Below, piece by piece: positions 8,367 to 41,747 of a DNA stretch of 54,443 nt. The notes beneath the pieces were generated by a model. That model had not been told where the DNA came from. It saw only the letters and a program-made list of their open reading frames with translations, and made no database searches. The DNA is from a virus (Duplodnaviria > Heunggongvirae > Uroviricota > Caudoviricetes), in IMG/VR virus record IMGVR_UViG_2579778982_000031; one strand, 5' to 3'. Positions within the stretch are counted from its first letter, which is position 1. Each line of letters opens with the position of its first letter. Made by a program: the position numbers and the translations under genes.

Positions 8367-8843
8367 ATGCAGGCACTAAATCCCCAGCGTAAAGCTTTCC
8401 TTGATATGGTGGCATGGTCAGAAGGAACGGATAACGGGCGACAACCGACACGTAACCACGGTTATGATGTTATTGTTGGTGGCGAACTGTTCACTGATTA
8501 CTCCGATCACCCTCGCAAACTTGTCAAGCTAAACTCCAAACTCAAATCAACAGCCGCCGGACGTTACCAGCTTCTTTCCCGTTGGTGGGATGCTTACCGT
8601 AAACAGCTTGGTTTGAAAGACTTCTCCCCCAAAAGCCAGGACGCAGTGGCATTGCAGCAGATTAAAGAGCGTGGCGCTTTACCTATGATTGATAGCGGCG
8701 ATATTCGTCAGGCAATCGACCGTTGCAGCAATATATGGGCTTCATTACCCGGTGCAGGTTACGGTCAGTATGAACATAAAATCGGTGACCTGATTGCCCG
8801 ATTTAAAGAGGCTGGTGGGGTGGTAAATGAAGTTGAGTTATAA
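8367..8843 (+). CDS. R: Endolysin, lambda R-like lytic transglycosylase
   Basis: Near-identical from memory to lambda R over most of its length (NPQRKAFLDMVAWSEGTDNGRQPTRNHGYDVIVGGELFTDYSDHPRK...). Confidence 0.9.
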   Translation: MQALNPQRKAFLDMVAWSEGTDNGRQPTRNHGYDVIVGGELFTDYSDHPRKLVKLNSKLKSTAAGRYQLLSRWWDAYRKQLGLKDFSPKSQDAVALQQIKERGALPMIDSGDIRQAIDRCSNIWASLPGAGYGQYEHKIGDLIARFKEAGGVVNEVEL

Positions 8844-27287: not shown

Positions 27288-27862
27288 CAAACGATGATTA
27301 CATCCGTCTGTTGTCGGCACTGCTGCCGCCCGGTCCGGCGTGGTCAGCCAGCGATCCGGCGATTGCCGGTACGGCACCGTCATTAACCCGTGTTCATCAG
27401 CGTGCGGATGCCCTGATGCGGGAGCTGGATCCGCGCACCACCACCGAACTGATAAACCGCTGGGAGCGTCTGTGCGGCCTGCCGGATGAATGTATTCCTA
27501 CAGGGACACAGACCCTTCGCCAGCGCCAGCAACGGCTGGATGCGAAGGTTAACCTGTCGGGTGGCATCAACGAGGATTTTTATCTTGCACAGCTTGCTGC
27601 CCTGGGCAGACCAGATGCTACCATCACGCGATACGACAAAAGCACGTTCACCTGCTCATCGGCCTGTACTGACGCGGTGAATGCGCCGGAATGGCGGTAT
27701 TACTGGCAGATCAACATGCCAGCCGCCACCAACACCACCTGGATGACATGTGGCGATCCCTGTGATTCCGCACTGCGTATCTGGGGCGACACCGTTGTCG
27801 AATGTGTGCTTAACAAACTCTGCCCGTCGCATACCTACGTAATTTTTAAATATCCGGAGTAA
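27278..27862 (+). CDS. Tail protein, YmfQ-like (Mu gp48 family)
   Basis: 194 aa directly upstream of the tail fibre gene, as ymfQ is in e14. Confidence 0.65.
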
Positions 27863-27865
27863 TCC

Positions 27866-28504
27866 ATGCATCGTATAGACACGAAAACCGCGCAGAAGGA
27901 TAAGTTCGGCGCGGGTAAGAACGGTTTTACCCGTGGTAACCCCCAGACTGGCACGCCTGCCACCGATCTGGATGATGACTACTTTGATATGTTGCAGGAA
28001 GAACTCTGCAGCGTGGTGGAGGCATCCGGTGCCAGCCTGGAGAAGGCGCGGCACGACCAGTTGCTTACCGCGCTTCGTGCGCTGCTGTTAAGCCGCAAGA
28101 ATCCGTTTGGCGATATCAAATCGGATGGCACGGTGAAAACGGCTCTCGAAAACCTTGGTTTGGGAGAAGCGGCAAAACGGAATGTGGGAACAGGGGAAAA
28201 TCAGATACCAGATATGTCTGCATTTCCATCTGGCAAAAACTGGTTTCAGTTACCAAGTGGTCATATTGTCCAAATGTTTTCGATGAATGTTTATGGGGCG
28301 GACACTAACGGAACTACAGGTAATTTCCCTATTGCATTTCCTTCAGGCGCACTGGCTGTTAGTGCCTTATGGTCAGATGGCACATTAACGGCTGCTCCGA
28401 CCTTTAAACTTATGGGGTACACGACAACAAGGACATCAGTAACCTTAAAAGTATCAGCCGGAAATGGTTTGTATGGAACTATGATTATCGCAATAGGAAG
28501 ATAA
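27866..28504 (+). CDS. Tail fibre protein (constant N-terminus plus variable C-terminus in current orientation)
   Basis: Spans the left crossover repeat at ~28150; the part upstream of the repeat is shared with the alternative C-terminus encoded on the opposite strand. Confidence 0.7.
28150..28168. repeat. Left crossover site of the invertible tail-fibre segment (hix/gix-like)
   Basis: TTGGTTTGGGAGAAG with an AAAACC-TTGGTTT palindromic core inside the fibre gene; inverted copy at 30046-30064. Confidence 0.6.
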
Positions 28505-28505
28505 T

Positions 28506-28949
28506 ATGAATCAATATATTTATTCCCCTTCGGAAAATGCTTTTTATGCTGTTAATTTAAAAAACACTTATGAAGTAAATGGAACATGGCCTGCTGATGC
28601 ATTAGATATTCCTGATGACATTTCTGTAAAATATATGGCGGAACCGCCACAAGGGAAAATCCGAGTTGCAGGGGAAAATGGTTTTCCCACATGGGCTGAA
28701 ATACCTCCACCATCACATGAGGAACTTATTGAACAGGCCGAATCAGAGAGGCAATTATTGATTAACCAGGCCAACGAATACATGAACAGTAAACAATGGC
28801 CCGGTAAAGCCGCTATTGGTCGTCTGAAAGGCGAGGAACTGGCACAATATAATTCGTGGCTGGATTATCTGGACGCACTGGAACTGGTCGATACTTCCGG
28901 GGCGCCAGATATTGAATGGCCTACGCCTCCGGCAGTTCAGGCCAGATGA
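28506..28949 (+). CDS. Tail fibre assembly protein (Tfa)
   Basis: 147 aa after the fibre gene; conserved C-terminal PDIEWPTPP motif. Confidence 0.7.
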   Translation: MNQYIYSPSENAFYAVNLKNTYEVNGTWPADALDIPDDISVKYMAEPPQGKIRVAGENGFPTWAEIPPPSHEELIEQAESERQLLINQANEYMNSKQWPGKAAIGRLKGEELAQYNSWLDYLDALELVDTSGAPDIEWPTPPAVQAR

Positions 28950-29526
28950 CATCCGGCGCGGTGCTGGTATCTGTTGCCGTCACCGCGTCAATGTAATCCA
29001 GCACAGCGTTAAGGCGGGTTGTTTCTGCCTGCGTCAGTTTACGTCCGGCCTGTAATTTCAGCTGAATCAGACTGATGGAGGCCATTGCAGTATCAATCAG
29101 TGACTGGCGCTGTGCTTCTGCCGTGTCTACTGCGACGCTATGCTGTGCCTCAGTATCGGTCACCCATTTCTCACCATCCCATTTATCGTATGGTGTTAAC
29201 GGGGCGATAGTTGTGGTATTTTCAGGGTAATCACCCGGAGCTGTGATTTCTTTTGACTCTCCCGTTTTGGTGCTATAGACGATTTCACCGCGATGGTCTG
29301 GCACATATTCCCATGAGTTAAAATTTGCAGAACGACAGATAGCATAACCCACCTTATATGTGCCAGGAGCATCTAAACAGGAATATGCGGGGATACCGAC
29401 ACCCACAGCAAGATATTCAATTGATGCAGAAATATACTCCCGTGTCTCACTGTCATAGTTATAAACGGTAATCTCTCCTGCCTTTGTGGCAATAAATTTA
29501 TTATTTAAGATGGCGTTATACATCAT
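28921..29526 (-). CDS. Alternative tail fibre assembly protein (inverted copy)
   Basis: 201 aa on the opposite strand inside the invertible segment; ends with the Tfa-type motif PDVIWPELPEA. Confidence 0.7.
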   Translation of the reverse strand: MMYNAILNNKFIATKAGEITVYNYDSETREYISASIEYLAVGVGIPAYSCLDAPGTYKVGYAICRSANFNSWEYVPDHRGEIVYSTKTGESKEITAPGDYPENTTTIAPLTPYDKWDGEKWVTDTEAQHSVAVDTAEAQRQSLIDTAMASISLIQLKLQAGRKLTQAETTRLNAVLDYIDAVTATDTSTAPDVIWPELPEA

Positions 29527-30101
29527 GCAGCCCTCACAATGTAATTAAATGAAATATTACGTGGGCGTGTCTCTGCTGCACCGACAATACTGGTGCTCAA
29601 CCCCGTTGCCGTTCGTTTGTTATTTTTATTTCCTTCAATCAGACAGTTGTAATCATCATTACCAATTAACGAATTGGTGGCATCAATACTGTCCGGGGAC
29701 AAGGCATTAGTAGTGGAACTTAAAGTCAGCATCTCGTCTGAACTTGGAAGATTTTTTAATGGTGTTTCATTGCGTGAAATACCCGCGTAAAAAAAGGACT
29801 CATGCCTGTGAGCTTCAAAAGAGTCATCCTGAAGACTTAGCAAGGCTCGCCCCGCATCCACTCCACGTCCATCATCCCAGCCACGAATAAATTCACCGCG
29901 TAAATCAGGCAATTTATTGGTCGGGTAAGCCTTTGCCAGTTCCGGGTATTCTTCAGCAGAAAAAGCCGCACCATTGCATTTCAGCCAGCCTGTTGGCGGA
30001 GTGGCTGAAGGCCACGGAACAGGCACCCCAACCGGTAATGCAGAGCCTTCTCCCAAACCAACGTTTATGAAAATGCAGAAATAACGAGCAAATGGCATCA
30101 T
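29523..30101 (-). CDS. Alternative tail fibre C-terminal segment (silent in this orientation)
   Basis: Contains GWLKCNGAAFSAEEYPELAKAY...LPDLRGEFIRGWDDGRG, typical of Mu S/P2 H-type receptor-binding C-termini; 5' end crosses the right crossover repeat. Confidence 0.65.
   Translation of the reverse strand: MMPFARYFCIFINVGLGEGSALPVGVPVPWPSATPPTGWLKCNGAAFSAEEYPELAKAYPTNKLPDLRGEFIRGWDDGRGVDAGRALLSLQDDSFEAHRHESFFYAGISRNETPLKNLPSSDEMLTLSSTTNALSPDSIDATNSLIGNDDYNCLIEGNKNNKRTATGLSTSIVGAAETRPRNISFNYIVRAA
30046..30064. repeat. Right crossover site of the invertible tail-fibre segment
   Basis: Reverse complement of the 28150-28168 repeat (≥15 bp identical), just upstream of the invertase gene. Confidence 0.6.
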
Positions 30102-30127
30102 TCCTGCTTTTGTCAGGGAGATCTACC

Positions 30128-30682
30128 ATGCTTATTGGCTATGTACGTGTGTCAACAAATGACCAGAACACAGATCTACAACGTAATGCGCTGAACTGTG
30201 CAGGATGCGAGCTGATTTTTGAAGACAAGGTAAGCGGTACAAAGTCCGAAAGGCCGGGACTGAAAAAACTGCTCAGGACATTATCGGCAGGTGACACTCT
30301 GGTTGTCTGGAAGCTGGATCGGCTGGGACGTAGTATGCGGCATCTGGTCATTCTGGTTGAGGAGTTGCGCGAACGTGGCGTTAATTTTCGCAGCCTGACG
30401 GATGCTATTGATACCAGCACACCGATGGGGCGTTTTTTCTTTCATGTGATGGGTGCCCTGGCTGAAATGGAACGAGAACTGATTGTTGAACGAACAAAAG
30501 CTGGACTGGAAGCTGCTCGCGCACAGGGACGAATTGGTGGACGTCGTCCCAAACTTACACCAGAACAATGGGCGCAGGCCGGGCGATTAATTGCATCAGG
30601 CGTTCCTCGCCAGAAGGTGGCTATTATCTATGATGTTGGTGTGTCAACTTTGTATAAGAGGTTTCCAGCCAGGGTTATATAA
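30128..30682 (+). CDS. pin: Serine DNA invertase (Pin/Gin/Hin family)
   Basis: MLIGYVRVSTNDQNTDLQRNAL...VVWKLDRLGRSM...; catalytic Ser in the VRVST motif and C-terminal HTH; close from memory to e14 Pin. Confidence 0.9.
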   Translation: MLIGYVRVSTNDQNTDLQRNALNCAGCELIFEDKVSGTKSERPGLKKLLRTLSAGDTLVVWKLDRLGRSMRHLVILVEELRERGVNFRSLTDAIDTSTPMGRFFFHVMGALAEMERELIVERTKAGLEAARAQGRIGGRRPKLTPEQWAQAGRLIASGVPRQKVAIIYDVGVSTLYKRFPARVI

Positions 30683-31024
30683 AACCGCAGACATGTCGTA
30701 TGCAGGAGGTGTCGCGGTTGGCTGGTGAACTTTTGATAGTGCGAGTATTGAATGATTTCCAGCCGTTACTGATTTTACGCATTTTTGTATGAGAGGGTTT
30801 GCACCTCCTTCCACCGATTCTCCATGACTTTACGCCACTGTCTCTAGAACTGCTATGTGCCAACAGCAGACATTCATAGCACACAGTTTTGTTAACAACT
30901 AGAAATAAGTTTAGGAATAGTCGCGATATATCTATTAAAGATACAATCATTCAAATAAATGAGACATTTTCGGCATGCTGGGAAAAGTAATTAAAAATGG
31001 TGAAAGCCAATTATTTTTTATTAA

Positions 31025-31531
31025 TCAACTTTTAAACCATAAGTCATCTCGATAGAGTAGACTAATTTTCGTTGCATCTTTTGATGCTAGAGTCGTACAC
31101 TCTCCTTTATCAAACTCATCTAGACTCACAAATGTAAATTCGTCACCATTTTTTTCTTTCGGAAACACCATAAAGACTACTTCGAAAGTACAATCACTAT
31201 ACACATTTTTTAAGAATTGCTGAAGTGCTCTATACTTTCCTATTTCACAATCAGTAAGTGTAAAGGAGGTACACCCATCTGTTGAGTGATACTTCGCATC
31301 TAAAAGAATATAAGAGGATTCGTCAGCGTCAATAATGAAATCGGGGCGTTTCCCCCCATATGATTTCAAGTTTGCAGATAAAGTATTTATTCCTTGCTCA
31401 ACATGTTCAAATTTCCACTTGGATTTTTCCAGCCATCTACTAGCATATTTCTCACCATCTTGACCAGCCGTTATAGAGTATTGTTTTCTTAATGCGCTGC
31501 ACATTTCGTCTAAATTTAACATAAATTCCAT
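31025..31531 (-). CDS. Hypothetical protein with PD-(D/E)xK nuclease-like motif
   Basis: AT-rich ORF; putative motif ...E...RPDFIIDADESSYILLDAKY (PD...D-A-K spacing). ATG chosen at MEFML. Motif assignment is by eye only. Confidence 0.4.
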   Translation of the reverse strand: MEFMLNLDEMCSALRKQYSITAGQDGEKYASRWLEKSKWKFEHVEQGINTLSANLKSYGGKRPDFIIDADESSYILLDAKYHSTDGCTSFTLTDCEIGKYRALQQFLKNVYSDCTFEVVFMVFPKEKNGDEFTFVSLDEFDKGECTTLASKDATKISLLYRDDLWFKS

Positions 31532-31799
31532 GTTCCTTTTTTTTAGTATAATTATTAACATCGGCAGTATTTAATAATTCTTTAAAAATAAATTTTCAGG
31601 CTCATACCAATTATATCTTCAAGCATTATTATCAAGCATATTCGAGACCTCTGCAATTCGCTCACAGCGGATCTCGCCTAGCGAGCAGGTCTGCTCAGTG
31701 CCATAATTAGTCTCATCAGCAGACTATAGTTGTGCTCAATCGGAGACATGTGGCAAACATGAGGAACATTATGTCCGTCAAAGAGTTTTCGTAGCTTAG

Positions 31800-32121: not shown

Positions 32122-34875
32122 CTATTTGATTGCTGCATTGATTCGTTTATATCTTTGGGTAAAGGCCTCTTTGCCACCTTCCATCACTCGGCATATCTCA
32201 TCGCGTATGGAAGGTTCTTGAAGACCCCCTTGCGCCACAATTCTGGTTTGACCAGACCGAATATCAAGGGCAATGACGTTTTCCGCGTCACCATTCACGA
32301 CGATGTTAGCGTTGTGCGTGACTACTAAAACCTGCCGTTTTTGTTTGATCTCACGCAATTGCGTCACGATAAGATCATAGATTAAGTGGTTATCAAGATC
32401 ATCCTCAGGCTGATCAAGTATAAGAGGCTCATTGCCATATGAAAGGATAAATGCAAGGAGAGCCGCCGTTTTTTGCCCCGGAGATCCTTGCTCTACGGGT
32501 TTGAAACTCTCGCCGTTCTTGAGGCTATATCTGATATCCAGAGAATCGCCTGGAAACCAGCACTGAATTCGATCTATCTGTTCCGGAGTTAGCCCCTGAA
32601 TGAGGGATACAAAACGTCGATCTTTGCAGGATTCCACCGCCATAGTATCGTTTTCATGGATTGCAAGTAGCGATGATTTTATTTTCTCAATTTTATCATC
32701 CATAGTATTGGATTGGTCTTGCGTTAAATAAGCCAGCAAGCCCTCATCCCCGTCAACAACTCCAATGTCGCGGTCAAATCCGCCACCACTGCGGCCGATC
32801 AGGTTACGGAATTCTTCCTCAACCGTAATCTTGTTTCCAAACGGAATGACATTGATCTGTACATATGAATTGCCGACGAGAGTATCCTTGAGAAAGTCCT
32901 CACGAAGTTTGGTTATCAATGCTCGATGCTCATGGAGTTTGACCAAGTATTCTTCCGCGCTCTTCTGATGCTGCGCAAGAGTTTCTCTCTTTTTGTCGAA
33001 TCCCTTGAGCTTATCTTCGAAATCTTGTCGCTGCTTAACCAGAACACCATATGCAGATGGATCACCTGCGTCTGCTGCGCTGAGTTGACCGAGGAGGGCG
33101 TTGTATTCATGGCTCGCCGCTGTAATTCTTTTCGATATTCCCAAGTCTGATCGAGTTTGATTCCATGAGTTCTTCACATCATCAATCCGCTGCGCGATCG
33201 AGTTCATCTCTGTCTGAAGCTTCTCAAACGTCGCACGGATGTCCTTGATGGTATCGAAGAGTTCTTTGTCATCCGCATTCCCAATGTCGAAATATTGTAA
33301 ATCCAATTCTGCTGGCAGTAGGCTTCCAGAAATATCTCGGACCTGTTCGGCGGAATCCTCCCAAGTCGTTACCCAGGAGTCCATAGCCTTACTCTGGTTC
33401 TGTCTGAGTTGGTAAGCCTTAAGGACATCCGCGTGGCCCGCCTTTTCAAAAACATCGAGTTTGCGTTTGACGTCTTCAAGCTGACCTTTGGTTACCGATT
33501 CTTCCTGAAGCCCAGCCTGAACTTCACGCTCTTGGGCGCGAAGCGAGAGATATTTGGAAACCAGTTCATCCCACTTAAGCTGCCAATCACGATGATTGAC
33601 CTCCGGGGCATCATCGACAACCTGCAAGAGTGCTTGGGGATGCTTTGCCAATTCGAATATCTGTTTCTGGCTGTAAATCCTGACAGGAAATCGTTGTGCT
33701 ATGTCTCCCTCGGAATCACACCAGACTCCGGGAGCGGTCTCTTCCTCGATGCTGTATATGTCGTCGGTATTAGACCAGGTGATTCGGAAACGGCCACCGT
33801 CTTTTCGAAAGCCTACAGTTATTTTCGTGGAATCTTTTAACAGCCCTTCATCTTGGCGGTCTTTCGAAGTTTGACTGTATTTGGTAAATTCCTTTTCAAG
33901 GCTCTTGGGGATTTCTCCCTTTCGTTTAAGAGCAATCCGCAGGAATTCCAACGAAGTCGATTTCCCAGTGCCTCGTCCACCAATGATAGTGTTGAGCCAG
34001 GGGTTCAGTTGACAAGTTAAAGATTGCCCTCGTCCTAAGTACTTCGCATCATCAACCACGATACTTTCGATGGCAAGTTGTCCATGGATATTTGGGTCAC
34101 CAGTGAAGTTGTCCGACCGCTTCAGTGAAAGAGCCCCATCAACGAGCGCCAGCCGTAATCCGTCATAAGATGGCTCCGACATTTTTACCCAAGTGAAATG
34201 GCTACCCGGGTAGCGTTGATTTCCGGTACCGGACGGATGATGGGAATCGGTTCCAAGAATCTCTGCCCAATTCAAATTCTTGCCAATATAGAGCTGCGGT
34301 TTTGCTTTAGCAAGGTCCGTTACCTCCATAGCAAAAACACATTTGTTGTCAAGCACCTGCTCTAGTGTGTTGCCCGTACAGACCGTAAAAAGTCCGCTAG
34401 CCTGATCTACATGAGCAGGTATTGCAAGTCCTCCTGACCTAGCAATTTCGTCGATCACCTCAACTGCTGAGCATTCAGAGCAGCCGTCGCTCTTTCCTTT
34501 GGTGCCGCGATACCTGACCGCACCAAGCAGTGAGTCGATATCAGAGGTTGTCTTGTCTTCGCCGAAAATGGCCAGAATATGGATATTCCCCTGAACAGTA
34601 AGCTCAACACCTGGGAATAAGTAGAGTGGTCGATAATCTTCATGACTCTCAGATGCCAGTTCCTTGAGTGCCTGCTTGAGCGGATCAATCCAAGCGCCTG
34701 AATTATGGTCCGTGACAGCGACACAATCGATGCCTTGTCGCATGTAGTTGAGCAGCCAATCTTTATGAGTGATCTGCATATACTGGGCCTGATTAGGGCC
34801 TTTTCCATAATCGTCCGATGCCGGAGTGTGATTATGGAAGTCGAATTTCCACCACCGAGAACCAATCCAGTTCAT
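32122..34875 (-). CDS. PHP-domain phosphoesterase fused to SMC/ABC-like ATPase (Ppl-like candidate anti-phage protein)
   Basis: N-terminal PHP motifs (FDFHNHTPASDDYG, AVTDHNS, IPAHVD); Walker A GGRGTGKSTSLEFL; long coiled-coil region; Walker B/D-loop LILDQPEDDLD and H-loop VVTHNANIV. 917 aa. Confidence 0.6.
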   Translation of the reverse strand: MNWIGSRWWKFDFHNHTPASDDYGKGPNQAQYMQITHKDWLLNYMRQGIDCVAVTDHNSGAWIDPLKQALKELASESHEDYRPLYLFPGVELTVQGNIHILAIFGEDKTTSDIDSLLGAVRYRGTKGKSDGCSECSAVEVIDEIARSGGLAIPAHVDQASGLFTVCTGNTLEQVLDNKCVFAMEVTDLAKAKPQLYIGKNLNWAEILGTDSHHPSGTGNQRYPGSHFTWVKMSEPSYDGLRLALVDGALSLKRSDNFTGDPNIHGQLAIESIVVDDAKYLGRGQSLTCQLNPWLNTIIGGRGTGKSTSLEFLRIALKRKGEIPKSLEKEFTKYSQTSKDRQDEGLLKDSTKITVGFRKDGGRFRITWSNTDDIYSIEEETAPGVWCDSEGDIAQRFPVRIYSQKQIFELAKHPQALLQVVDDAPEVNHRDWQLKWDELVSKYLSLRAQEREVQAGLQEESVTKGQLEDVKRKLDVFEKAGHADVLKAYQLRQNQSKAMDSWVTTWEDSAEQVRDISGSLLPAELDLQYFDIGNADDKELFDTIKDIRATFEKLQTEMNSIAQRIDDVKNSWNQTRSDLGISKRITAASHEYNALLGQLSAADAGDPSAYGVLVKQRQDFEDKLKGFDKKRETLAQHQKSAEEYLVKLHEHRALITKLREDFLKDTLVGNSYVQINVIPFGNKITVEEEFRNLIGRSGGGFDRDIGVVDGDEGLLAYLTQDQSNTMDDKIEKIKSSLLAIHENDTMAVESCKDRRFVSLIQGLTPEQIDRIQCWFPGDSLDIRYSLKNGESFKPVEQGSPGQKTAALLAFILSYGNEPLILDQPEDDLDNHLIYDLIVTQLREIKQKRQVLVVTHNANIVVNGDAENVIALDIRSGQTRIVAQGGLQEPSIRDEICRVMEGGKEAFTQRYKRINAAIK

Positions 34876-35237: not shown

Positions 35238-35283
35238 ATTCGTAATGCGAAGGTCGTAGGTTCGACTCCTATTATCGGCACCA
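35238..35283 (+). tRNA. 3' fragment of tRNA-Thr(CGU) (thrW-like), candidate att site; not an intact tRNA
   Basis: ATTCGTAATGCGAAGGTCGTAGGTTCGACTCCTATTATCGGCACCA matches the anticodon-loop-to-CCA half of enterobacterial tRNA-Thr(CGU) as recalled; the 5' half is absent upstream. Confidence 0.6.
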
Positions 35284-35300
35284 TTCAAACATCTCCCCAA

Positions 35301-35385: not shown

Positions 35386-35448
35386 CTACGGTCAGATGGG
35401 GGTACTTATGGGGGTATTTGCTGTTCGGTTTAGTGGAGGTACCCCCAA

Positions 35449-36663
35449 GTGAAACTCAATGCCCGTCAAATAGACACAGCCAAGCCAAAAGAGAAGGCTT
35501 ACAAGCTGACCGATGGTGGCGGTTTGTATCTCTTGGTAAAACCTAATGGAGGTAAATACTGGCGACTTAAATATCGTGTAGCTGGTAAAGAGAAGCTATT
35601 GGCACTAGGTGTGTATCCTGAGGTTACTCTAGCCGATGCTCGGGCAAAACGTGAAGATGCGAAAAGAGGTATCGCTGGTGGTATCGATCCGATGGAAGCG
35701 AAACGAGAGGAAAAGATTGCCCGGGAAACGCAGTTAAACAACACCTTCAAAGATATTGCCCTTGAGTGGCACAGCAGCAAATTAAAAAAATGGTCTGATG
35801 GTTATGCTTCAGACATCCTCGAAGCCTTCAACAAAGATGTGTTCCCTTACATTGGCAAAAAACCCATCGCCGAAATCAAACCACTTGAACTTCTGAATGT
35901 GCTGCGTCGCATCGAGGGGCGCGGTGCTACAGAAAAAGCCAAAAAAGTGAGGCAACGGTGCGGGGAAGTTTTCCGCTATGCAATAGTCACTGGTCGCGCA
36001 GAGTATAACCCTGCACCAGACCTTACTAGCGCGATGCAAGGCCATGAATCTAATCATTACCCTTTCCTTACAGCCAAAGAATTACCTGATTTTTTCAAGG
36101 CATTGTCCAGTTACTCAGGAAGCGCATTGGTTGTTATGGCGGCTCGTCTACTGATTATCACCGGCTTGCGGACTGGCGAACTACGTGGCGCATTATGGGA
36201 TGAAATTGATTTCAACAAGGCTATCTGGGAGATACCCGCTTCACGTATGAAAATGCGGCGGCCTCATATTGTGCCATTGTCTGAGCAGGCTCTTTCGCTT
36301 ATTGGGAAGATTAGAGAAATAACAGGCAATTACCCTCTTATGTTTCCCGGGCGCAATGATCCAAGGAAAACAATGAGCGAGGCCAGCATAAACCAAGTGT
36401 TTAAGCGCATTGGCTACGCTGGACGTGTAACTGGTCATGGGTTCCGGCACACTATGAGTACGATTTTGCATGAGCAGGGCTATAACACCGCGTGGATAGA
36501 AACGCAGCTCGCTCACGTTGATAAGAACTCAATTCGTGGCACATACAACCATGCGCAATATCTGGATGGAAGGCGGGAGATGCTTCAATGGTATGCCGAC
36601 TATATGGATTCTCTCGAGCATGGCGGAAATGTGGTGCATATGGTGTTTGAAAAACACGCATGA
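35449..36663 (+). CDS. int: Tyrosine integrase, P4-like
   Basis: N-terminal DUF4102-type arm-binding region (LTDGGGLYLLVKPNGGKYWRLKYR); catalytic box GHGFRHT...; next to a tRNA 3' fragment; GTG start after GGAGGT. Confidence 0.85.
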   Translation: MKLNARQIDTAKPKEKAYKLTDGGGLYLLVKPNGGKYWRLKYRVAGKEKLLALGVYPEVTLADARAKREDAKRGIAGGIDPMEAKREEKIARETQLNNTFKDIALEWHSSKLKKWSDGYASDILEAFNKDVFPYIGKKPIAEIKPLELLNVLRRIEGRGATEKAKKVRQRCGEVFRYAIVTGRAEYNPAPDLTSAMQGHESNHYPFLTAKELPDFFKALSSYSGSALVVMAARLLIITGLRTGELRGALWDEIDFNKAIWEIPASRMKMRRPHIVPLSEQALSLIGKIREITGNYPLMFPGRNDPRKTMSEASINQVFKRIGYAGRVTGHGFRHTMSTILHEQGYNTAWIETQLAHVDKNSIRGTYNHAQYLDGRREMLQWYADYMDSLEHGGNVVHMVFEKHA

Positions 36664-37054
36664 AACAACTGGACAAGTATACAGAGGTTTACTAAAGTAT
36701 AGGGGAGTAGATTGATAAAAACTCACAGAGGATTGCTATTTAACAGTTAGCCCTGGAGAAGGGCAATCGCTCTTTTATAAACGAAGGTGTATTGAGCCTT
36801 CTACGTCGCTGACAAAGCGGAATGTTCTTTAAAACTACTGGATGTCACGCCTAATAGCGTGATCCTGCCGAAATGCAGGGTAGCTCTACCCTTGTGGAGC
36901 AAACAAACCAAAACAATCTGACTATCTTTTATAAAAGACCGCAATATGTTTTTCATATTGTGGTCTTTGGCGTATTCGACATTTGACGCAAATAAAACTC
37001 TCGCCATTCGTTGCAGGAGGGGGTTATTGCGTCATTAGTACAGGATATTAATAA

Positions 37055-37258
37055 ATGGCTAATTACAATTCATTAATTCGTCTCTCTGAAGTTCAAAGGC
37101 GAACTGGTTATAGCAAAGCATGGATTTATCGTCTTATTAGTCAGGGGAGGTTCCCTAAACAGGTAAAAATTGGAAGTCGGGCAATTGCTTTTGTTGAGTC
37201 TGAAATAGATGAATGGATTGAGAAGTGTATATTAGAATCTAGAGACGAGGTGGCCTGA
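37055..37258 (+). CDS. alpA: AlpA-family transcriptional regulator / excisionase-like
   Basis: 67 aa; LSEVQRRTGYSKAWIYRLISQGRFPKQVKIGSRAIAFVESEIDEWI is a typical AlpA/Vis HTH. Confidence 0.75.
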   Translation: MANYNSLIRLSEVQRRTGYSKAWIYRLISQGRFPKQVKIGSRAIAFVESEIDEWIEKCILESRDEVA

Positions 37259-37689
37259 TGGAAAAGAAAAACCGCCCATTACAGGCGGCTAATTCAGATA
37301 TTCGTGTATCTGATGTTACGCCCCTTACAAAATCCCTTCAAGCACCAAAGCGTACACCGAAAAAGCATCGTGCCAGAGTCTATATGCTGCGTACTGGTAT
37401 AGAGGGATGGACAGAAAATGACATTCTTCGCTACTGCCGTCTGTCTTCTGGTCGTAACTATGCAACAGAGTTAGAACGCCAGCTTGGAATCACTCTGGAG
37501 CGTATCGACGAAAAGAATCCTGATGGTATCGGAACACACCTTCGCTACCGTTTCTCCTGCCGTGGTGATGTTCTGAAAGTGATCACTCATATTAACCATC
37601 TTGCGAACATAAATGATCACAACGGACTTTCTCAGCAGGAAATTGCCGACATTCTGAAACTCTACCCGGACGCGTTTAACGCCGCCTAA
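37258..37689 (+). CDS. Hypothetical protein
   Basis: 143-aa ORF, ATGA-coupled to alpA. Confidence 0.4.
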   Translation: MEKKNRPLQAANSDIRVSDVTPLTKSLQAPKRTPKKHRARVYMLRTGIEGWTENDILRYCRLSSGRNYATELERQLGITLERIDEKNPDGIGTHLRYRFSCRGDVLKVITHINHLANINDHNGLSQQEIADILKLYPDAFNAA

Positions 37690-37701
37690 CGGAGACTGAA
37701 A

Positions 37702-38535
37702 ATGAACATCGAAAAAAGCAGATTAATTTCTGAGGCTGCCCCTCATCTGAACGCCTCTCTGGGCACAATTAACGGTAATGAATTTGCCGCAATTGTCCCG
37801 GTTATTCCTGGTCATATCGGTGGGCGTGAAACCAATATTGTTAGCGCAAAAGCGTTACACAAAGCGTTGGGCGTGGGAAAAGACTTCTCTACATGGATCA
37901 CTGATCGCATCTCTGAATATGACTTCACCATTGGGCACGATTACTCAGTCCATAAAACAATTTCCCCAAATTTGGGGAAAAGCCCGAATGGCGCGGCTTA
38001 CAGCAAGATTAAGCAGTCTGGCAGACCCGGCAAAGACTATCTGTTAAGTGTCGGAATGGCGAAAGAACTGGCAATGATCGAACGCAATGATCAGGGTCGC
38101 GCTATCCGTCGTTATTTCATCCAGTGCGAGGAAGAATTACAGCGTAGCGTGCCTGAAATCGCCGCCCGCTATCGTCGCCAGCTAAAAGCCCGTATTAGTG
38201 CCGCAAACAACTTTAAGCCAATGTGCGATGCGCTGAATATGGCCCGTGCCGAGCAGGGGAAAACGACGCAGCAACACCACTACACAAACGAGAGCAATAT
38301 GATTTCTCGTATCGTTCTTGGTGGGCTAACTGCTAAGCAGTGGGCGCGGATAAATGGCTATTCTGGCGAACCTCGCGACCATATGAACGCAGAACAGCTT
38401 GAGCACCTCTCATATCTCGAAAGCACCAATATCACGTTAATTGATATGGGCATGGAATATGAGCAGCGCAAAGGAGAACTCACCCGCCTGTCGCAACGCT
38501 GGCTCGCCAAGCGTCTGGAGGCGGTCCATGTTTAA
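37702..38535 (+). CDS. Phage antirepressor-like protein (AntA/KilAC-like)
   Basis: N-terminal region resembles AntA-type antirepressor domains (NGNEFAAIVPVIPGHIGG...VSAKALHKALGV); assignment tentative. Confidence 0.45.
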   Translation: MNIEKSRLISEAAPHLNASLGTINGNEFAAIVPVIPGHIGGRETNIVSAKALHKALGVGKDFSTWITDRISEYDFTIGHDYSVHKTISPNLGKSPNGAAYSKIKQSGRPGKDYLLSVGMAKELAMIERNDQGRAIRRYFIQCEEELQRSVPEIAARYRRQLKARISAANNFKPMCDALNMARAEQGKTTQQHHYTNESNMISRIVLGGLTAKQWARINGYSGEPRDHMNAEQLEHLSYLESTNITLIDMGMEYEQRKGELTRLSQRWLAKRLEAVHV

Positions 38536-38703
38536 GCCGACAGGAACACCACAACCCCAAAAACGCTACAAAGATGCCCACGGAGCACTCGTTACTGTCG
38601 AAAGCGTGTCTCACAACCGAGTGACGTTTTATCGCGACGGGTATCAATCGCCATGCGTACAACTGCTGGCGCGCTTCATGAAGGAGTTCGCGGAGGTTAA
38701 CAA

Positions 38704-39771
38704 ATGCTAACCGTCCAGAAGAAGATATTTTCACTGGCTGGTATGTCGCCAAAATCCAGCAATATGACAGCAAAGTCTGGCATTAATACAGCATATACAA
38801 GCAAAGTTTATCATTTTCTGGTGGTAGGAGCGGATGCCTTAACTATGTCAGAAATTACGGTCGATGGTGTTAGCGTTGAGAAGGTCGGCGGCTGCGCCAG
38901 AGAATTTCTGGTCGTAGATGGCTTTCTCTGCTCGCGTAGTGACTCCACAAAAACCTTCGTCCACACGCGCGACGTTAACGAAATGAGCGCGATGTATTGT
39001 GCATCTGGTGCTTCCAATAGTGAGTTTTCGGAGTCCATAAAAAAGAGCTTGCCGTTATGCGGCAACACGGTTTATGGTTATAAGGCACCTCATAAAACGG
39101 GTGCCGGGATTGGCGTCCTGAAAATTCTGAAGGCGACATATGACGCGCCGAGCGTCTTTTTTTATGTCGTAGGTCTGACTCACCCATTTTTTGGGCGTTG
39201 GTGTATAATCCAGCGCCTTTGTCAATCAATGGTGGCTCAGGCGGGGGCTTCTTCGGAAGCGCCGGTATCCTTCAGAGCCGGTTACGCCAACCCTGTCTGG
39301 GCTACCACCAGCGAAATTGGCGTTTCCGGTGGTAGCGTAACCTGCTATCTGAAGGAGGCTGCCACATGCTGGCTACTACCCCTACCCAAAAACCGCAATT
39401 TATCTGGATTATCGCCGCAGTTCGCCGCGATTGCCCGACAATTACCGCCAAAATTCATCATATTGCTGCCGAGTCTGAACGCGATGCTCGCCGTTCTCTG
39501 GTGCGCGATCACGTCTGCTTTTTTGCTGGTCGTATCCGCATGGAGGTGGCACATGATTAAAACCTACGATGTGCATATGGATCCCCTCGAACGCACAAGC
39601 CAGATCATCACACTGACAGAAGTGATTAACGACATTCTGGTGAGCAACTCTCCCTCACGAGACGAAAGACTGAAGGCGTTACTCGCGATATTGGATCTCG
39701 CCGTTCGTGACGTTCATTTCCTGCTGGAAGGTGGCGAAATGCCAGGAAAAACGGGGGCAACCAATGAATAA
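38704..39771 (+). CDS. Hypothetical protein; gene structure ambiguous
   Basis: 355-aa ORF whose middle looks non-protein-like; a 64-aa ORF (39366-39560, RBS AGGAGG) in another frame and a 72-aa in-frame C-terminal ORF from 39553 (RBS GGAGGT) may be the real genes. Confidence 0.3.
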
Positions 39772-39958
39772 CTCAATTAATGCCCCTCGACTTACGTCCG
39801 CACTTCAATTAATCGAGCAAGCAGCGGCTGTCCTGGTTGCTGTCAGTCTTTCGGCTGAAGAAATGGACGCTGCTGATGTCGTGGATGCGATTAAAGCGTG
39901 CTCATCTTTGGTTAACGATGCCCGTGCAGAGCTGGTAATTCTTGGGGGTGAAAAATGA
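39764..39958 (+). CDS. Hypothetical small protein
   Basis: 64-aa ORF from an internal ATG; part of a run of coupled small genes. Confidence 0.35.
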   Translation: MNNSINAPRLTSALQLIEQAAAVLVAVSLSAEEMDAADVVDAIKACSSLVNDARAELVILGGEK

Positions 39959-40218
39959 ATATCAACTTAATTTATCGTCATCCGTGTGAGCTGGAAATTG
40001 AATCATTGCTGGGGCGTGAAGAGCCATATCCAGACACATTCACTCCCGCAGATTGCGCGACTGAACGGCTTACCAGAGCGCGCACAGGTCTGGTTCATGT
40101 GATGAATGAGATTATTCCCTCGGTGGGAGGGGAACAGGCGACAGTAATCAATAGCTGGCTACAAAAAGTTACCTCCCTGATAGATATCAGTTTAATCGAT
40201 GTGGAGAGTGCGAAATGA
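39955..40218 (+). CDS. Hypothetical small protein
   Basis: 87-aa ORF, ATGA-coupled. Confidence 0.4.
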   Translation: MNINLIYRHPCELEIESLLGREEPYPDTFTPADCATERLTRARTGLVHVMNEIIPSVGGEQATVINSWLQKVTSLIDISLIDVESAK

Positions 40219-40436
40219 CCAACATCCAGCTCATTGAAGCGCAATGTCGCATCGAACAGGTTCAGACTGTTTTAGGGTTCTGGCTTGAAGGGGCCAGCCC
40301 CAGCAACAGAGACAAGTTAATGATTGGCGCGGTTATGTCACTGCTCAATGGCGTACCAGAAGCTATTCAGGAAGCAGACGAATTGTTGGGCAAATATGAG
40401 TTACAGAATCATTCAGGCGAGGCGAAACATGAATAA
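40215..40436 (+). CDS. Hypothetical small protein
   Basis: 73-aa ORF, ATGA-coupled. Confidence 0.4.
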   Translation: MTNIQLIEAQCRIEQVQTVLGFWLEGASPSNRDKLMIGAVMSLLNGVPEAIQEADELLGKYELQNHSGEAKHE

Positions 40437-41031
40437 TTTCTTAACCTTCCATGCAGAAGCAACGCCTGACGGCGTAAACATCATGTACCGCAGCAACGAT
40501 GGCATGACAGAACGCGTTGAGGCCGTTTCATATATTGATGCCGTAAATCGTCTGGATGCCGGGGATTATGACGATAAACCAGATGAAGGTATGTCAATAC
40601 ATCTTGCTATTGCCGATGGCGGCAACCAGGGATATTTCGATTACACATCACAGCATAACGTCATTATGTGGAGATGGCTGATCGCAACAGTATTCATGCT
40701 GGAAATGAGAGAGGAAAACGGCACTGTCAGCATCATTGATGATACTGGCAATCCTTCCGAAGTGGCTGTTTATTCCAACGGCATCGTCGCCATGCCGCTG
40801 TATCCAGTAGCAGAGCGCCTCGCTATGGCAAACAACATTGAGGGCGCGATGATAGAACGTTTTGGCATCGAGTCTGGCACAGAACGCGCCATCATTTTCT
40901 ACAGAGCCATGATGGATGTGGAACAAGGAGCACTGACTCCATTTGGTCGTGAAACGCTTGCTGAACTTCACAACAGCTTTATAGCTGAACTGAATGAAAA
41001 CGGCATGCCAGCGGAACCAGTGACGCACTGA
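40429..41031 (+). CDS. Hypothetical protein
   Basis: 200 aa from the ATG at 40429, overlapping the previous stop. Confidence 0.45.
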   Translation: MNNFLTFHAEATPDGVNIMYRSNDGMTERVEAVSYIDAVNRLDAGDYDDKPDEGMSIHLAIADGGNQGYFDYTSQHNVIMWRWLIATVFMLEMREENGTVSIIDDTGNPSEVAVYSNGIVAMPLYPVAERLAMANNIEGAMIERFGIESGTERAIIFYRAMMDVEQGALTPFGRETLAELHNSFIAELNENGMPAEPVTH

Positions 41032-41041
41032 GGATGGAGCC

Positions 41042-41383
41042 ATGATTACTAAAAATTTCCGACTGAATGCGCTGGCAAATAAGTATGCGTCGGCACTGTA
41101 TAACCACATTACCTCCACCAGCGGCGGGGACTATTTCATGGTTCATGCGGACGACAAGGCCGTACGTGTGGAAATCGTCAATGGAGTAAAAGGCGTTCGC
41201 AGCCTGATCGATAGCTACACACTGGCTGCCATGAAAGTGTTCTACCCGCAGTGGGAAACCGTGGGGATCGAGCTTCTTGATCGTTGCGTCACTAAGGACG
41301 GATTGACTGACGTCGGGCGTGAGATATGGCAAAGCATGGTTAATGACATGGGCGCAACTGTAGCGGGAGGTTCTCATGCGTGA
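41042..41383 (+). CDS. Hypothetical protein
   Basis: 113-aa ORF in the small-gene operon before the primase. Confidence 0.45.
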   Translation: MITKNFRLNALANKYASALYNHITSTSGGDYFMVHADDKAVRVEIVNGVKGVRSLIDSYTLAAMKVFYPQWETVGIELLDRCVTKDGLTDVGREIWQSMVNDMGATVAGGSHA

Positions 41384-41747
41384 AAATGCAGAAATGGCGC
41401 TTAGCTCCGCAATCGGAGAGCAGGTGGCAAAGATTGCTGGTGCTGTGTGGATTCATAACCTTCATTCTACTGGTGAAGAGAAAATGGCAATTCAGACGCC
41501 AGAGGGACGCACCATTACTACATCTCTGAAGCCGTCAGATGTTTGTGATCTGATTTGCGCATTCATGTACCCAGCAATGAGGACTGTCCACGGCGATAAG
41601 TGGAAACTTGCGACAACCGCTGAATTTGATATGTGGCTAAACAATGATGGCATGCTGACTGATTACGGAATAACCAAGTGGCAGATGCTGGTTAGCCATA
41701 TCGCAAACGCTATAGACCACGTGGGGTACGGTGATGCGAAACATTGA
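41376..41747 (+). CDS. Hypothetical protein
   Basis: 123-aa ORF overlapping the primase start. Confidence 0.45.
   Translation: MRENAEMALSSAIGEQVAKIAGAVWIHNLHSTGEEKMAIQTPEGRTITTSLKPSDVCDLICAFMYPAMRTVHGDKWKLATTAEFDMWLNNDGMLTDYGITKWQMLVSHIANAIDHVGYGDAKH

Follow-up and report, generated by a model that had tools for sequence, protein, structure and literature searches.

The stretch of DNA analyzed here, a window of 54,443 nucleotides (nt) from the virus record IMGVR_UViG_2579778982_000031, is 100% identical to the chromosome of Escherichia coli (E. coli) S163-2 (NZ_CP058709.1). Positions 27866–30682 of this window feature five open reading frames (ORFs), identified from the ORF list and from Pfam matches, that encode a tail fibre, an alternative fibre tip, two fibre chaperones, and the DNA invertase Pin. 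This locus is a functional e14-type Pin/pix site-specific inversion switch in an SfV/SfII-like prophage, a reading that is given a probability of about 0.9. The system is already known, it is an orthologue of the P-inversion system of e14 from E. coli K-12 with variant fibre tips, here located in an intact prophage. The e14 P-inversion system was described in 1985. A sequence-only reading of the same DNA had called the locus an intact Pin-type switch; the type was assigned correctly, however the reading did not recognize the e14 system that had been described before. Its claim that the switch is intact also stands, as the invertase is undisrupted and 96% identical to PinE and the repeats are not mismatched.

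Crossover sites, invertase, and predicted enhancer

The invertible segment is flanked by two crossover sites of 26 bp. The pixL site is located at 28143–28168, reads TTCTCCCAAACC AA GGTTTTCGAGAG on the minus strand, and has its central dinucleotide at 28155–28156. The pixR site is located at 30048–30073, reads TTCTCCCAAACC AA CGTTTATGAAAA, and has its central dinucleotide at 30060–30061. Alignment of the sites to the published sets determined that they are identical at 26 of 26 positions to pixL and at 26 of 26 positions to pixR of e14, and that their cores are the same as those of the K-12 e14 locus. The reference sequences come from PMC3241671, whose Table 3 lists pixL and pixR of e14 together with hix, gix, cix, mix, and bix. 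As inverted copies, the inner half-sites match each other perfectly; the outer half-sites differ, which is likewise the case in e14. Both sites fit TTC---AAAC- -A -GTTT---GAA, the consensus for dix sites, equally well as the published pixL and pixR, and both feature a central AA when they are read in the same sense.

A repeat finder located the inverted arms at 28150–28169 and 30047–30066, with a length of 20 nt and 95% complementarity. The sequence-only reading had placed them at 28150–28168 and 30046–30064, of which the first arm agrees with the repeat finder and the second is off by 1–2 nt. The sequence TTGGTTTGGGAGAAG is found at 28155–28169 and its reverse complement is found at 30047–30061. 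The 19-nt core TTCTCCCAAACCAASGTTT occurs in exactly two copies, which are inverted relative to each other, in the 54-kb window, even when 3 mismatches are allowed. The chance expectation for this core is 0.03, and two matches were obtained in 0 of 100 shuffles. The window contains only two sites and therefore only two states are possible. A multi-site shufflon of the Min type was ruled out on the basis that there are only two pix-type sites in the window at ≤3 mismatches, and a looser search with the dix consensus gave a single extra match, at 36773, which is at the level of chance. Other inverted repeats were considered and rejected as sites. Repeat I1 (28039/30029, 80%) is weak apart from its overlap with GGAGAAGG of the pix core, repeat I7 (28213/30067) is without a counterpart among the known sites, and repeat I8 (28859–28876 and 28985–29002, 18 nt, 83%) is the LDYLDA/LDYIDA motif of the chaperones on opposite strands and is not a recombination site.

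The sequence-only reading located a serine invertase immediately downstream of the repeats, and this is the pin gene, which is found at 30128–30682 on the plus strand. Pin is a Din-family serine DNA invertase of 184 amino acids (aa) that features a Resolvase domain (Pfam, 5.9e-52) and an HTH_7 domain (1.5e-13). The protein is 96% identical to K-12 PinE, 81% identical to P1 Cin, and 77% identical to Mu Gin, and the residues R7, S9, D64, R65, and R68 are invariant across all four proteins. The Gin crystal structures 3uj3 and 4m6f match Pin at 1e-94. The true start codon of pin, in agreement with RefSeq and K-12, is the ATG at 30128, and a 196-aa ORF that begins at 30092 is a mechanical extension. 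Searches of Pin and the fibres with PADLOC and NCBIfam returned generic recombinase models and no specific family. In K-12, PinE has been found experimentally to invert the e14 P segment (PMC12529663, PMC4272514), and PinQ, a paralogue of Pin, can flip pix sites in trans (PMC12529663).

A Fis-dependent recombinational enhancer is predicted at 30146–30217 on the plus strand, which corresponds to nt 19–90 of pin. This stretch can be aligned without gaps to the cin enhancer of P1, annotated in the P1 record at cin nt 19–90, and it differs from K-12 pinE by 2 nt.

Two fibre states and the evidence for inversion

The tail-fibre gene has a constant 5' part of about 96 codons (Sc), which is located at 27866–28156 on the plus strand, outside the invertible segment, and is joined to whichever tip faces it. 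Residues 1–101 are ~98% identical to K-12 StfP. In the present orientation Sc is joined to the tip Sv (28157–28504, plus strand), which features a gp53-like C-terminal domain (Pfam PF21882 Gp53-like_C, 1.9e-08), and the joined ORF at 27866–28504 on the plus strand encodes a fibre of 212 aa. Sv and the tip of K-12 StfP have diverged, and a search of the PDB sequences with the 212-aa fibre gave no match. The chaperone for Sv is a TfaP-like protein of 147 aa (28506–28949, plus strand; Pfam Caudo_TAP, 2.7e-33) that is now co-oriented with the fibre gene and has a C-terminal half that is 52% identical to K-12 TfaP. The alternative tip Sv' (29523–30059, minus strand) is of the collar-domain type, comprises 178 codons (Pfam Collar, 1.6e-15), and is not joined to Sc in this orientation. 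Matches to its collar region in the PDB are T4 gp12/gp37 and a short tail fibre. The chaperone for Sv' is a TfaE-like protein of 200–201 aa (28921–29526, minus strand; Caudo_TAP, 9.2e-32) that is 90% identical to K-12 TfaE and is now in the silent orientation. The ORFs and the Gp53-like_C, Collar, and Caudo_TAP matches agree with the earlier description of the repeats as bracketing alternative fibre C-termini and their chaperones on opposite strands.

When positions 28155–30061 were reverse-complemented in silico, residues 1–101 of the fibre were joined in frame to the collar tip, which resulted in a fibre of 275 aa. In the inverted state the TfaE-like chaperone is located directly after the 275-aa fibre, and the gp53-like tip and its own chaperone face away. 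The 212-aa and 275-aa fibres share residues 1–101, and both states are complete ORFs. The prediction that inversion would swap the fibre tip thus held in silico, where the frame is kept and the adjacent chaperone is swapped too, and the flipped state is found in strain TUM9754. When the in-silico inverted sequence was used as the query, TUM9754 matched its entire length (100%) in a single piece with 99.6% identity. The prophage of TUM9754 is the same one, located at an identical chromosomal position with shared flanks (the Ppl-like gene, a LysR fragment, and paoD), and Pin, YmfQ, the two chaperones, and the baseplate proteins have equal accessions in both strains. Sc is identical in TUM9754 up to the crossover, both junctions are located exactly at the predicted sites, and the 275-aa fibre is annotated as intact. 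The silent gp53-like tip of TUM9754 (8580–8720 of its extracted locus, L003, and 28300–28440 of the window) has several small indels and is labelled as partial in RefSeq; these indels are either decay of an unexpressed copy or homopolymer sequencing errors.

A second pair of strains features the same rearrangement. The soil sister isolates MEI1-1023 and MEI2B-1023, which have an identical chromosome length, carry a homologous module in opposite orientations. Their segments are 100% identical once one is reverse-complemented, and the identity breaks inside the 26-bp sites. When 5426 complete E. coli genomes were probed with 200-nt junction sequences, the collar tip was found beside pin in 914 genomes and fused to the constant part in 562. 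The fused (inverted) state thus accounts for ~38% of the junction-bearing genomes, which fits the 33% reported by Kirigo et al. 2025 (PMC12529663). Both states of the e14 segment coexist in K-12 cultures, as confirmed by polymerase chain reaction (PCR) (PMC4272514), and inversion was also detected by PCR and quantitative PCR (qPCR).

The ORF of Sv' extends to an ATG at 30101 on the minus strand. The short leader that it passes through (30074–30101, minus strand) features ATG ATG, is located outside the segment, is supported by the ORF list and a RefSeq coding sequence, and is homologous to the K-12 stfE start. The leader peptide, MMPFARYFCIFINV, is encoded by 30101–30060 of the minus strand and its K-12 counterpart is MPFACYFFI. 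In both orientations the leader supplies the ORF start to the tip that is proximal to pin. RefSeq annotates the silent collar tip as a separate 191-aa "phage tail protein" at 29523–30098 on the minus strand, with a start in the 54-nt spacer before pin. What is annotated here is not an independent gene; it joins a 14-codon leader to the 3' half, now detached, of a gene that is split. A scan of 27700–31100 for promoters and terminators was at the level of chance (6 versus 5.5 and 5 versus 3.4) and is uninformative on a promoter for pin or for the silent tip. The convergent chaperone genes overlap tail to tail by 29 nt (28921–28949), where one stretch of DNA encodes both C-termini (…PTPPAVQAR and …WPELPEA, each ending at its stop codon), and the same 29-nt overlap is found in K-12 e14 (L002, 12518–12546).

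Nucleotide homology to SfII/SfI/SfV and to vB_EcoM-689R6 ends at 28169–28216, which is 1–50 nt from pixL, and homology to SKA5 ends at 30066, in pixR. The pix sites coincide with mosaic joints, and this pattern fits an exchange of tips by recombination between phages. The GC content drops from ~0.57 to ~0.46 at the start of the fibre module (about 28000–28216).

Proposed mechanism and alternative explanations

The mechanism of the Din family has been established for Hin and Gin (PMC3798978), and the sequence identity of this Pin to an experimentally active system suggests that it acts in the same way. Dimers of Pin would bind to both 26-bp pix sites and, together with Fis on the enhancer in the 5' end of pin, would form an invertasome. 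Pin would cut both sites at the central AA/TT, one half would turn by 180 degrees, and religation would leave the 1.9-kb segment at 28155–30061 flipped. The late tail operon would be read through the 96-codon fibre head (27866–28156) into the tip that faces it, which would be the gp53-like tip with the TfaP-like chaperone in the present orientation and the collar-domain tip with the TfaE-like chaperone in the other. A population of lysogens would then release two kinds of virions that differ in the receptor-binding tip. The two tips belong to unrelated families, Gp53-like_C and Collar (T4 gp12/gp37-like), and they likely bind different receptors.

There are some points that weigh against this interpretation. 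The S163-2 assembly features one orientation only, and the evidence for both orientations comes from finished assemblies of other strains. Paralogues can act in trans, so the orientation differences between strains do not prove catalysis by the prophage's own Pin. The role of the enhancer and its dependence on Fis are suggested by conservation of the sequence. Host-range switching, which the sequence-only reading regarded as probable, is proposed by analogy with Mu G and P1 C, and no demonstration of it for e14/SfV-like phages was found in the literature consulted.

An alternative is that the inversion mainly serves the lysogen and not the phage. In this case the pin-proximal start (30101/30098, minus strand) and the other tip would, in one of the orientations, give a StfE2-like chimera that masks outer-membrane receptors against other phages. 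Kirigo et al. reported that inversion of e14, which is driven mainly by PinQ, results in a chimeric StfE2 that blocks the adsorption of T2, and that StfE2 begins at the stfE ORF start just outside pixR (PMC12529663). The masking role reported for K-12 e14 and phage T2 thus supports this alternative, as do the conservation of the leader ORF start outside the segment, where MMPFARYFCIFINV corresponds to MPFACYFFI, and the presence of a Ppl-like anti-phage gene that adjoins pin. However, the prophage is complete, so the classical role on the side of the phage is available to it, and there is strong divergence between K-12 StfP and the gp53-like tip from which the chimera would be made. Additionally, neither a promoter signal above chance nor a good ribosome-binding site was found for the leader ORF, and its AGGA abuts the ATG. 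A benefit chiefly to the lysogen is considered unlikely on this evidence, and it is compatible with a role in host range. An extension of the same idea is that the flip, which puts the gp53-like tip behind the leader, would together with the Ppl-like ATPase make the right arm of the prophage a recombinase-switched defence module, which was claimed for K-12 e14 in 2025; for this prophage the proposal is speculative and is regarded as unlikely.

The architecture could also be a frozen relic, in which inversion has ceased and the 212-aa gp53-like fibre is the only one ever made. This explanation is consistent with the single orientation that is found in this assembly and in FORC_081, which is 99.9% identical. 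It is very hard to reconcile with crossover sites that are identical to the functional pixL and pixR, an intact Pin that is 96% identical to the active PinE, a conserved enhancer sequence, intact ORFs for the silent tip and its chaperone, and the flipped copy of the same prophage in TUM9754, and it is accordingly considered highly improbable. It is scarcely credible that the orientation differences between strains are assembly errors or RecA-dependent recombination at short repeats rather than site-specific recombination. Inverted repeats can mislead assemblers, and the comparison is limited to finished assemblies. However, with only ~15–20 nt the perfect repeat is not long enough to recombine efficiently by homology or to make an assembly collapse, two independent strain pairs have their breakpoints exactly inside the 26-bp pix sites, each junction is found in hundreds of genomes, and inversion of e14 was confirmed in K-12 by PCR and qPCR. 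A functional Pin/pix switch remains the preferred explanation.

Prophage setting and related systems

The element that carries the module is apparently a complete SfV-like prophage with an e14-type fibre module, as judged from its genes. It is an SfV/SfII-like myovirus that is integrated at thrW. The integrase abuts a tRNA-Thr beside proA, and attR is marked by 48 nt at 35238–35285 of the window that directly repeat the 3' half of the tRNA-Thr gene (thrW); the prophage is therefore ~40.8 kb in size, and its right end is located ~4.6 kb to the right of pin. The first base of the window falls inside ymfL, so that the early left arm and int are outside the window. To the left of the window start are found the Q antiterminator, replication genes, the YmfK/YmfT repressor pair, and the integrase. 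RefSeq annotates an unbroken late operon around the module, which consists of holin, endolysin, Rz/Rz1, HNH, terminase, portal, protease, capsid, connectors, sheath, tube, and tape measure genes and continues with a Mu-type baseplate (gp44–48 homologues, the last of which is ymfQ), the fibre module, and pinE. The RefSeq gene names at the locus include ymfQ and pinE, and Pfam identified the upstream baseplate genes as Mu gp47/gp48 homologues. No defects are annotated in the integrase, repressor, lysis, head, tail, and baseplate genes, and the att repeats are present. For the structural region, the identity is 96–97.6% to four Shigella phages (SfII, SfI, SfIV, and SfV) and to a pair of E. coli myoviruses.

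Two cargo genes are located between pin and attR on the minus strand. The first (31025–31561) encodes a 178-aa protein with no family match, and the second (32122–34875) encodes a 917-aa PHP and AAA ATPase protein that matches the anti-phage protein Ppl of PADLOC (2e-157). The NCBIfam TrlF family matches this ATPase with 651 bits, and the ATPase is under the Ppl equivalog cut-off. The slot after pin is occupied by mcrA in K-12 e14 and by an HNH endonuclease and an AAA ATPase in the MEI strains, and it looks like a hotspot for defence genes. The right chromosomal flank (window about 35410–41630; RefSeq) features a truncated LysR-family gene, paoA with an internal stop, and a frameshifted yagU, and the CP4-6 region, which normally follows thrW in K-12, is absent from this flank.

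The closest known system is e14 of K-12. Both loci share the order ymfQ-stfP-tfaP-tfaE-stfE-pinE, that is, ymfQ, fibre, chaperone, chaperone, fibre tip, and pin, and their fibres are nearly identical through the constant part and the proximal 65 residues of the collar tip. However, e14 is a 15-kb remnant at icd, whereas the S163-2 element is a complete prophage of 40.8 kb that is integrated at thrW and has full sets of head, tail, and lysis genes. Both tips have diverged from those of e14 in their distal, receptor-binding parts, the TfaP-like chaperone has diverged in its N-terminal half, the segment is ~1.8 kb in e14 and ~1.9 kb here, and the cargo after pin is mcrA in e14 and the Ppl-like ATPase here.

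The Mu G/Gin and P1 C/Cin systems share the same arrangement, with the constant N-terminus of the fibre outside the segment, two opposed C-termini and their cognate chaperones inside, the invertase gene just outside, and an enhancer in its 5' end, which is predicted in the case of pin. The Mu and P1 segments are about 3 kb and 4.2 kb, respectively, compared with 1.9 kb here. The S fibre of Mu is 504 aa (a coding sequence of 1515 nt), whereas the fibres here are 212 and 275 aa, and the S/S' tips of Mu are unrelated in sequence to the tips described here. The P1 C segment features long inverted repeats of roughly 0.6 kb, and there are no such repeats at this locus. The two central bases of the sites here are AA, which cix and hix also have, whereas gix has GA. 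The Min system of plasmid p15B is shufflon-like; it also uses a Din-family invertase to rearrange tail-fibre C-termini, and its mix half-site TTCCCCCAAACC AA CGTTT closely resembles pixR, however it has six crossover sites and many segments compared with two sites here. Hin/hix of Salmonella shares the 26-bp site architecture, the small serine invertase, and the Fis enhancer in the invertase gene (predicted here), but Hin flips a promoter for the flagellin switch, whereas inversion here trades one 3' coding end of a structural phage gene for another. In APEC O78 (NC_020163.1, 1001114–1005118), the annotation of a related module lists two tail proteins and three chaperone genes, which hints at a more complex variant that possibly has more than two cassettes.

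The significance of the locus beyond its annotation is small. It features a clean e14-type switch inside an apparently complete prophage, whereas e14 of K-12 is a remnant. Such a prophage would be a better system for asking whether Pin inversion alters the host range of SfV/e14-like phages, and it could also show whether the defence role that has been claimed extends to other tip alleles.

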